This document shows, piece by piece, positions 59 to 4,510 of a stretch of DNA of 5,534 bases. The translations under genes and the position numbers were made by a program. The notes beneath the pieces were generated by a model, which was not told the origin of the DNA, made no database searches, and saw only the letters and a program-made list of their open reading frames with translations. The DNA comes from Escherichia phage G4. Each line of letters starts with the position of its first letter. The first letter of the stretch is position 1. The DNA lies in sequence record OR492646, one strand, 5' to 3'.

Positions 59-1723
59 ATGTTTAAAACTCATTCTGATTACTTCAACAAACCAAACATC
101 GACGCAATCAAACCGCTCGTCGAAACTGCTGGTATGTCTATTCTTGCTCAATCTCCGGGTCTCCGTATCTGGAAACAGTGCAATACTCGCATCAAACTAC
201 TGGAAGAAATCCTCGCCCACTACACTAACGGCATCCGCCGTGATGATAATGGTGACTTCTGGATGAATCCAAACTCTCAACTCGCAACCACTATTGCCTA
301 TCGTGCTCACCACAAAGGCCACAACCCTAAATTCAAACAATACCCAGAGTCATTTACCCTGGACGATATTATTACTGGCAAGCCAATACCTCAAACTGCC
401 CTTGGTGAATTACAACTCTCCGATGAAATCGGTGAAGATTACCGTCTCACAGTCCTCTCCATAATCGAAGAATTGCAAGAATGCTACGACGTGCTCGGAC
501 AACTTGATATTAATAACACTATAGACCACAAACCCCTCGGTAATGACCACTGGAACCTCCTCTATGAAAAACCCGTATACAAACATTGGTATCAACTCGT
601 TTCAAAACGACCCCTTAAAGATATCCGCGCCGATTACAACTATGCAAAAGCGAAGGGTATTAAAGATGAATGCTCAAAAATCTTGGAGGAGTCAACTATG
701 AAGTCTCGACGTGGCTTTACCGTTCAAAGATTAATGAATGCTATGCGTACTGCCCACACTCAGGGCTGGTATGTTGTATTCGATACTCTTACTCTAGCCG
801 ATGACCGCTTAAAGGATTTCTATGATAACCCCAATGCTCTTCGTGACTACTTCCGTGATATTGGTCGTATGGTGCTTACTGCCGAAGGTCGCTCGGTGCA
901 TGACTCATCTGCCGACTGCTATCAGTATTTTTGTGTGCCAGAGTATGGTACACAGCACGGTCGTCTACATTTCCACGCAGTGCATCTTATGCGCACACTT
1001 CCTTTGGGTTCTCTGGACCCTAACTTCGGTAAGCTGGTACGCACTAATCGGCAAATAAATAGCTTGCAAAACACGTGGCCTTATGGTTACTCTATGCCCA
1101 TCGCAGTCCGGTACTCCCAAGACGCATTCTCCCGCGCTGGCTGGCTCTGGCCTGTTGACACAAAGGGTGAACCCCTTAAAGCTACCTCGTATATGGCCGT
1201 AGGCTTCTACGTTGCTAAATACGTTAACAAAAAATCAGATATTGACATGGCCGCAAAAGGCCTAGGGAATAAACAATGGAACAATTCGCTCAAAACCAAG
1301 ATCAACTTCATACCCAAGAAAGTGTTCAGAATCCGAATGTCCCGCAATTTCGGAATGAAACTACTATCAATGGCTCACCTGTCAGCGGAAACCCTGATGG
1401 AACTAACCCAAGTGGGTTACGACGTGACCCCGTTCAACAACATCTTGAAGCAGAACGCCAAGAAAGAGCTCAAATCGAGGCTGGCAAAGAAATCTGTCGC
1501 CGACGTTTTGGAGGCGCAACCTGTGACGACCAATCTGCTAAAATTCATGCGCAATTTGACCCGAACAATCGGAGAGTCCAACCTACAGAGTTTTATCGCT
1601 TCAATGACTACGAAATTAACAAGTACGGATATTTCTGATGAAACCAAAAACTACGTTGCTGCTGAAGGAATTGCTGTTGCTAACCTACGAATTAAATCGA
1701 AGTGGACTGCTGGTGGAAAATGA
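59..1723 (+). CDS. A: Replication initiation protein A (HUH rolling-circle endonuclease), 554 aa
   Basis: The ORF track gives 32..1723. The in-frame ATG at 59 is preceded by a strong Shine-Dalgarno GGAGG (48-52) at 6-nt spacing, whereas the ATG at 32 has no RBS and overlaps the putative -10. The translation contains the HUH motif (GRLHFHAVH) and a long C-terminal region nearly identical to phiX174 A as I recall it (e.g. [43 protein letters not shown]). It stops with TGA at 1721-1723, overlapping the C start ATG (ATGA). Confidence 0.93.
500..529 (+). other. Origin of viral (+) strand rolling-circle replication; 30-nt A-protein recognition and nick site CAACTTG|ATATTAATAACACTATAGACCAC
   Basis: This is an exact match to the conserved 30-nt phiX174-type origin as I recall it, embedded in gene A (it encodes [10 protein letters not shown]). 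Protein A nicks between G506 and A507. Confidence 0.85.
698..1723 (+). CDS. A*: A* protein: in-frame internal restart within gene A (C-terminal 341 aa of A)
   Basis: The internal ATG at 698 is in the A frame and preceded by a strong SD GGAGGA (685-690) at 7-nt spacing. It begins MKSRRGF, the same position as the phiX174 A* start. Whether this phage expresses A* cannot be determined from sequence. Confidence 0.5.
1276..1638 (+). CDS. B: Internal scaffolding protein B, 120 aa, encoded in an alternate frame entirely within gene A
   Basis: The ORF track entry 1276..1638 starts with ATG. Its acidic, Q/E-rich protein ends ...[17 protein letters not shown]...[16 protein letters not shown], closely matching phiX174 B (...[10 protein letters not shown]...EFYRF...GYF) at the same length. 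Confidence 0.9.
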
Positions 1724-3840: not shown

Positions 3841-3849
3841 CGCAACAAA

Positions 3850-3955
3850 GGCCGCCCCTCTACTGGTCAGATACCTGCCCAATGTGGGGCGGACCGTGCC
3901 TACGGAGATACTTGAGTCTCCGATACATGGACGGCGAAAGCCGCCGTCCCTACTG
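3850..3955 (+). other. F-G intergenic structured region: candidate G4-type complementary (-) strand origin with three stem-loops and a CTG primase start site
   Basis: Seen in sequence: hairpin 3852-3858/3886-3892 (CCGCCCC/GGGGCGG); hairpin 3903-3908/3917-3922 (CGGAGA/TCTCCG, 8-nt loop); hairpin 3929-3936/3942-3949 (GGACGGCG/CGCCGTCC, 5-nt loop); then CTG at 3953-3955. The reverse complement of 3929-3954 reads AGTAGGGACGGCGGCTTTCGCCGTCC, which matches my recollection of the 5' end of the G4 primer RNA made by DnaG primase. Confidence 0.6.
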
Positions 3956-3976
3956 CAAAGCCAAAAGGACTAACAT

Positions 3977-4510
3977 ATGTTCCAGAAATTCATTTCTAAG
4001 CACAATGCTCCAATTAACTCTACTCAGCTTGCTGCCACTAAAACTCCGGCTGTCACGGCACCTGTTTTATCTGTGCCTGACTTAAGCCGCTCTACTATTA
4101 AAATCAATGCAACAACCACAGCCGTTACAACTCATTCAGGCTTGTGCCATGTTGTTCGCATTGATGAAACAAGCCCAACAAATCATCACGCTCTATCTAT
4201 TGCAGGTTCGTTATCAAACGTTCCTGCTGATATGATTGCTTTTGCCATTCGTTTTGAGGTCGCTGATGGCGTCGTTCCTACTGCCGTCCCGGCCTTATAC
4301 GACGTCTATCCAATCGAAACCTTCAATAACGGCAAAGCAATCTCATTTAAAGATGCTGTTACTATCGATTCACATCCCCGCACCGTCGGTAACGACGTTT
4401 ATGCGGGAATCATGCTCTGGTCTAACGCTTGGATCGCCTCTACTATCTCTGGCGTCCTCTCTGTTAATCAGGTAAACCGTGAAGCAACTGTTCTTCAACC
4501 TCTGAAATAA
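3977..4510 (+). CDS. G: Major spike protein G, 177 aa
   Basis: ATG at 3977 with an AAGGA SD 7 nt upstream. The translation starts [10 protein letters not shown] and ends [14 protein letters not shown], with an internal YDVYP...[26 protein letters not shown], matching phiX174 G (MFQTFISRHN...YDVYP...[26 protein letters not shown]...LQPLK). Confidence 0.95.

Follow-up and report, generated by a model that had tools for sequence, protein, structure and literature searches.

The viral-strand origin, ori(+), of the phiX174 type was among the first replication origins to be characterised. The phiX174 origin is taken here to consist of a 5′ recognition and cleavage part, an A+T-rich spacer, and a distal part that is bound by the A protein. 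Roughly the first 27-28 nt of this origin are sufficient, and cleavage of the duplex phiX174 origin depends on the negative supercoiling of RF I DNA. The 30-nt ori(+) of phiX174 is cleaved and religated at G4305 and A4306, and the successive attacks are performed by Tyr343 and Tyr347 (preprint 10.64898/2026.07.25.740675). Protein C of phiX174, which is needed for the change to single-strand synthesis and packaging, requires an intact origin to inhibit the initiation of replication (preprint 10.64898/2026.07.25.740675).

The HUH scheme comprises separate sites for binding and nicking, a 5′-phosphotyrosine link, and re-initiation by two tyrosines (review PMC5714925). The sequence-specific nick by an HUH tyrosine, the 5′-phosphotyrosine, and the separate binding and nicking sites are shared with the nonanucleotide stem-loops of CRESS-DNA viruses and the dso of pT181- and pC194-type plasmids, whereas the two-tyrosine flip-flop of the phiX174 type allows continuous re-initiation, unlike the other HUH replicons (PMC5714925).

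The stretch of DNA analysed here (the window, 5534 bases) was found to comprise a complete microvirus genome of circular type that is G4-like (Microviridae, Bullavirinae, Gequatrovirus), and its genes run in the order A, A*, B, K, C, D, E, J, F, G, H. Every gene lies on the + strand, so that this strand corresponds to the viral one, which is packaged and has the sense of the mRNA. ID11 matched 100% of the window in megablast with 96.2% identity, and the global alignments gave 96.2% for ID11, 95.6% for G4, and 95.4% for ID12, which places the window in one species with them under the usual 95% criterion. The gene coordinates of the window match the annotated G4-like records as far as the D/J junction.

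A phiX174-type 30-mer in gene A

The 30-mer CAACTTGATATTAATAACACTATAGACCAC had a single exact match in the window, at 500-529 on the + strand, with no other site in the window at three mismatches or fewer and none in 200 dinucleotide-preserving shuffles of the window. It lies in frame with gene A (59-1723) and encodes the decapeptide Q148-H157, numbered from the ATG at 59. All 30 bases are identical to phiX174 4299-4328, which is inside the protein A gene and in the same frame, and the phiX174 origin given in the initial annotation was correct in its sequence, coordinates, and translation. G4, ID11, and ID12, the deposited members of the species Gequatrovirus G4 used for comparison, carry the 30-mer without any difference and at the same coordinates 500-529, as seen for G4 by direct scan of the record. 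A BLAST search against 50,697 phage records found 565 records with at least 99% identity to the 30-mer.

The likeness to phiX174 ori(+) included the strand, the reading frame, and the decapeptide (Q107-H116 of phiX174, corresponding to Q148-H157 of the window), as well as the place upstream of the A* start, 169 nt before it in the window. The HUH motif and the two tyrosines are likewise shared by the cognate A proteins. In contrast, the codons on either side of the 30-mer have diverged from phiX174, as has the remaining N-terminal region of A (59% nucleotide identity), and the N-terminus of the window A protein is 41 residues longer. The features of gene A and of the origin are listed in Table 1.

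Table 1. Coordinates of the origin, its parts, and the features of gene A in the window
Feature	Position	Strand	Basis or remark
Viral-strand origin of rolling-circle replication, ori(+), 30 nt	500..529	+	Exact match to phiX174 4299-4328 and G4 500-529
Cleavage/recognition part CAACTTG^ATA, predicted nick G506/A507	500..509	+	Mapping from the phiX174 nick; positions 3-10 invariant
A+T-only spacer TTAATAA, variable part	510..516	+	Most natural substitutions fall here
Distal conserved part CACTATAGACCAC, presumed A-protein binding part	517..529	+	Positions 18-27 invariant; 28 and 30 vary in Mimer, 30 in L034/L035
Gene A, HUH rolling-circle initiator containing and acting on the origin	59..1723	+	Pfam Phage_GPA PF05840, E = 3.5e-60; ID11/G4/ID12 annotation
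A*, in-frame internal start downstream of the origin	698..1723	+	Annotated in ID11, G4, ID12; ATG at 698 in the window
HUH metal-binding motif H304-F305-H306	968..976	+	Aligned to phiX174 H263-F264-H265; role per preprint 10.64898/2026.07.25.740675
Catalytic tyrosines Y384, Y388 (YVAKY, spacing YxxxY)	1208..1222	+	Aligned to phiX174 Y343, Y347

The A protein of the window has 97% amino-acid identity to that of ID11 and 69% to that of phiX174. Both Y384 and Y388 are invariant in all 12 A proteins compared, and further residues highlighted for phiX174 also align in the window protein (T243, T245, E295, and R302). The reading frame of gene A already has an ATG at 32 and is open from there; the start annotated in G4, ID11, and ID12 is the ATG at 59, nine codons further on.

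By comparison with these sequences, the 30-mer is almost certainly the viral-strand origin ori(+) of a G4-like bullavirus, which A would nick between G506 and A507, and no result of the analysis spoke against this reading. This was the nick proposed in the initial annotation, and the one-to-one mapping of phiX174 G4305/A4306 onto the window (4299 corresponding to 500) predicted the same position. The element is already known, being the textbook rolling-circle origin of the phiX174-like phages, and nothing is added here to the understanding of phiX174-type replication. The value of the result is for annotation, in that the origin of the + strand is now placed in a G4-like genome, together with its probable nick site (G506/A507), and the replication module is seen to be intact.

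For the window phage, the place of cleavage, the covalent link to the DNA, and the functions of the sub-parts are assigned by homology. Protein A, produced from the same gene, would bind the origin on the supercoiled replicative-form DNA, and the A+T spacer would melt. Either Y384 or Y388 would cut the + strand between G506 and A507 and stay covalently on the 5′ phosphate of A507, while the free 3′-OH of G506 would prime rolling-circle synthesis, for which the Rep helicase and DNA polymerase III would be supplied by the host. The regenerated origin would be cut by the second tyrosine and the first bond resolved, so that the displaced strand would be circularised and replication re-initiated.

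Selection on the DNA and on the encoded peptide

Gene A of the window is 71% identical to that of phiX174 at the nucleotide level overall and 59% identical in the N-terminal part, and the N-terminal part around the origin is 42% identical to alpha3. The 30-mer is the sole stretch of gene A with 30 of 30 bases identical between the window and phiX174. Genome-wide it is the second-longest exact run shared with phiX174, the longest being 56 nt in the D/E overlap. On both sides the identity is lost directly at the edge of the 30-mer, with GGA against CCC upstream and AAA against CGC downstream.

Since phiX174 is a common contaminant and the G4-like phages are mosaic elsewhere, the identity could in principle be an artefact of chimeric assembly with a sequencing spike-in, or the result of a recent transfer as a small recombination patch. 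This explanation is vanishingly improbable, because the identity is limited to 30 nt with G4-type sequence on both flanks, and because none of the G4-like, ID2-like, and phiX-like genomes examined lacked the 30-mer, which was also present in a metagenomic relative (L019) whose A protein is only 51% identical. In L019 the perfect 30-mer lies between diverged flanks of its own. A contamination or chimera thus fails to account for the data, as only the 30 nt are common and each lineage has its own flanks.

Constraint on the DNA was examined at the codons of conserved degenerate amino acids, using one representative per clade from four clades (window, Lilleto, phiX174, and alpha3). All eight such codons of the origin, which are only eight in number, were identical, versus 28 of 119 elsewhere in A (one-sided Fisher p = 2.3e-5), the comparison set being the remaining A codons outside of the B/K overlap. 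The third codon positions are thus frozen at the origin, which implied that the constraint acts on the DNA and not only on the protein. The initial annotation had described the element as doubly constrained by its DNA and coding functions; the double constraint is real, but it is uneven, as the synonymous sites are frozen while the peptide changes where the spacer DNA changes.

The segment is coding and in frame, and eight of the ten residues of the decapeptide are invariant across the four clades, as would be expected if the 30 bases were kept only for an essential peptide of A and the DNA had no cis-acting role in the window phage. However, selection at the protein level would leave the third positions free, yet all of them are frozen. 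The DNA changes at positions 11 and 14-17 alter amino acids and are tolerated (I>N and N>S in one group, INN>NTC in another), and synonymous changes at the same codons are detrimental in phiX174 (preprint 10.64898/2026.07.25.740675). In the saturation mutagenesis of phiX174, nine detrimental synonymous mutations at codons Q107-D115 coincided with ori(+) (preprint 10.64898/2026.07.25.740675). Conservation for the peptide only is therefore very improbable. The A residues neighbouring the decapeptide are poorly conserved, and this, together with the frozen synonymous sites and a peptide that changes with the spacer, argues that the extreme conservation is driven by the cis-acting function of the DNA rather than by its coding role. 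The segment at 500-529 thus illustrates cleanly how a cis-acting element can sit inside a coding sequence, with selection on the DNA overriding codon degeneracy. That the decapeptide encoded by the origin itself contacts the origin DNA is purely speculative.

Natural variants and sub-parts of the origin

Aligned with the origins of phiX174, G4, and alpha3, as the initial annotation had suggested, the 30-mer was identical at 30/30, 30/30, and 28/30 positions, respectively. The element had been called perfectly conserved, which holds for the phiX174-like and G4-like groups but not for the alpha3 group, where two of the 30 positions differ. The origin of alpha3, St-1, phiK, and WA13 (Alphatrevirus) lies in frame at the aligned place and has cores 1-10 and 15-30 identical to the window; it differs by T11A and A14G in the spacer, and its A protein is only 44% identical to that of the window. 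This form, CAACTTGATAATAGTAACACTATAGACCAC, is carried by the alpha3 group as a whole (alpha3, St-1, phiK, WA13, ID21, and about a dozen IMG/VR contigs). Both substitutions fall at second codon positions and produce I>N and N>S, giving the decapeptide QLDNSNTIDH.

In Pectobacterium phage Mimer (L036, ON872163.1), the origin at 2131-2160 is conserved to position 27 and ends with ...GACAAG (C28A, C30G). The deposited Mimer record gives gpA as two separate pieces, which points to a frameshift or a faulty annotation. Two IMG/VR contigs of about 5.48 kb, L034 (212-241) and L035 (646-675), carry the variant CGACTTGATAATACATGCACTATAGACCAT in frame at the homologous place. Their changes include T11A, ATAA>CATG at 14-17, and one at position 30, and the peptide reads RLDNTCTIDH (INN>NTC). 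Their A protein shares 33-35% identity with the window protein and reaches no more than about 40% with that of any deposited phage, and the contigs represent a deep-branching, undescribed phiX-like lineage from metagenomes. If CGACTTGATAATACATGCACTATAGACCAT is used as the origin by L034 and L035, it is conceivable, though doubtful, that recognition has been frozen for far longer than the A protein and that very distant A proteins might cross-act.

Over all natural variants examined, the variable positions were 2, 11, 14-17, 28, and 30, while positions 3-10, 12-13, and 18-27 were invariant even at 33-35% identity of A. Relatives with 33-51% identity of A have kept the origin in frame and at the same residue of the alignment. 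This pattern of variation fits the classical three-part picture of the phiX174 origin. The exact decamer of the cleavage and recognition part occurs once in the window. A search of the window for a second origin at one or two mismatches of the decamer returned five further sites, that is, six including the origin versus 5.8 expected; such partial copies occur at chance frequency and thus do not indicate a second origin.

The lowest GC content in the scanned region 300-750 was at 495-524 (30%), and the hexamer-like words TTGATA and TATAGA are present there, so that the A+T-rich element might be mainly a transcription signal, such as an internal promoter driving A* or B, or a structured single-strand signal, instead of an origin. 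The two words are only about 10 nt apart, versus the 16-18 nt of a promoter, and no sigma-70-like promoter was found in 300-800. The folding of 470-560 was no better than that of shuffles (z = -0.46), giving no hairpin at the nick site. An explanation by transcription or structure is accordingly most unlikely. The sole terminator-like match lies at 364-342 on the minus strand and is unrelated to the origin. As an origin, the element differs from those of the CRESS viruses and many plasmids, in which a hairpin presents the nick site, since the origin of the window has no hairpin; also unlike the CRESS-DNA, pT181, and pC194 origins, it lies inside the coding sequence of its own initiator.

Other segments of the genome

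The longest run common to other genera was observed at 2177-2241 of the window, where 65 nt are identical to alpha3 and St-1; within it, the 56 nt at 2186-2241 are identical to phiX174 and form a longer run than the origin. The segment falls in the D/E overlap, with the E part reading LAFLLLLSLLLPSLLIMFIPL, presumably the transmembrane segment of E, and the two reading frames together may freeze the DNA here.

At the D/J junction (2420-2465), the window lacks 43 nt that are present between D and J in G4 and ID11, and ID12 lacks them likewise. In G4 the missing stretch is flanked by the direct repeat AAGG(T/A)GTTATGTAA, so that the deletion looks like a recombination between the repeats. With the deletion, the stop of D overlaps the start of J (TAATG, as in phiX174), and E extends to 2465 and overlaps J. 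The J-F intergenic region (2512-2545) contains a terminator-like hairpin, GTGGGACCGCGGTCCCAC, of the G4/ID11 type, while in ID12 the stem is another one, GGGGCTACGGCCCC, whose two arms carry matched indels. In the window, the D/J junction is thus of the ID12 type and the J-F hairpin of the G4/ID11 type, which suggests mosaicism among the G4-like phages.

The F-G intergenic region of the window (3841-3976) is identical at 141 of 142 positions to the region of G4 with the complementary-strand origin. The counterpart of the G4 RNA primer (3970-3997) is at 3927-3954 and includes the GGACGGCGAAAGCCGCCGTCC hairpin, and the mini-hairpin GCGAAAGC is located in the same intergenic region at 3934-3941. 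This F-G intergenic origin is a separate, primase-dependent ori(-), distinct from the ori(+) at 500-529.
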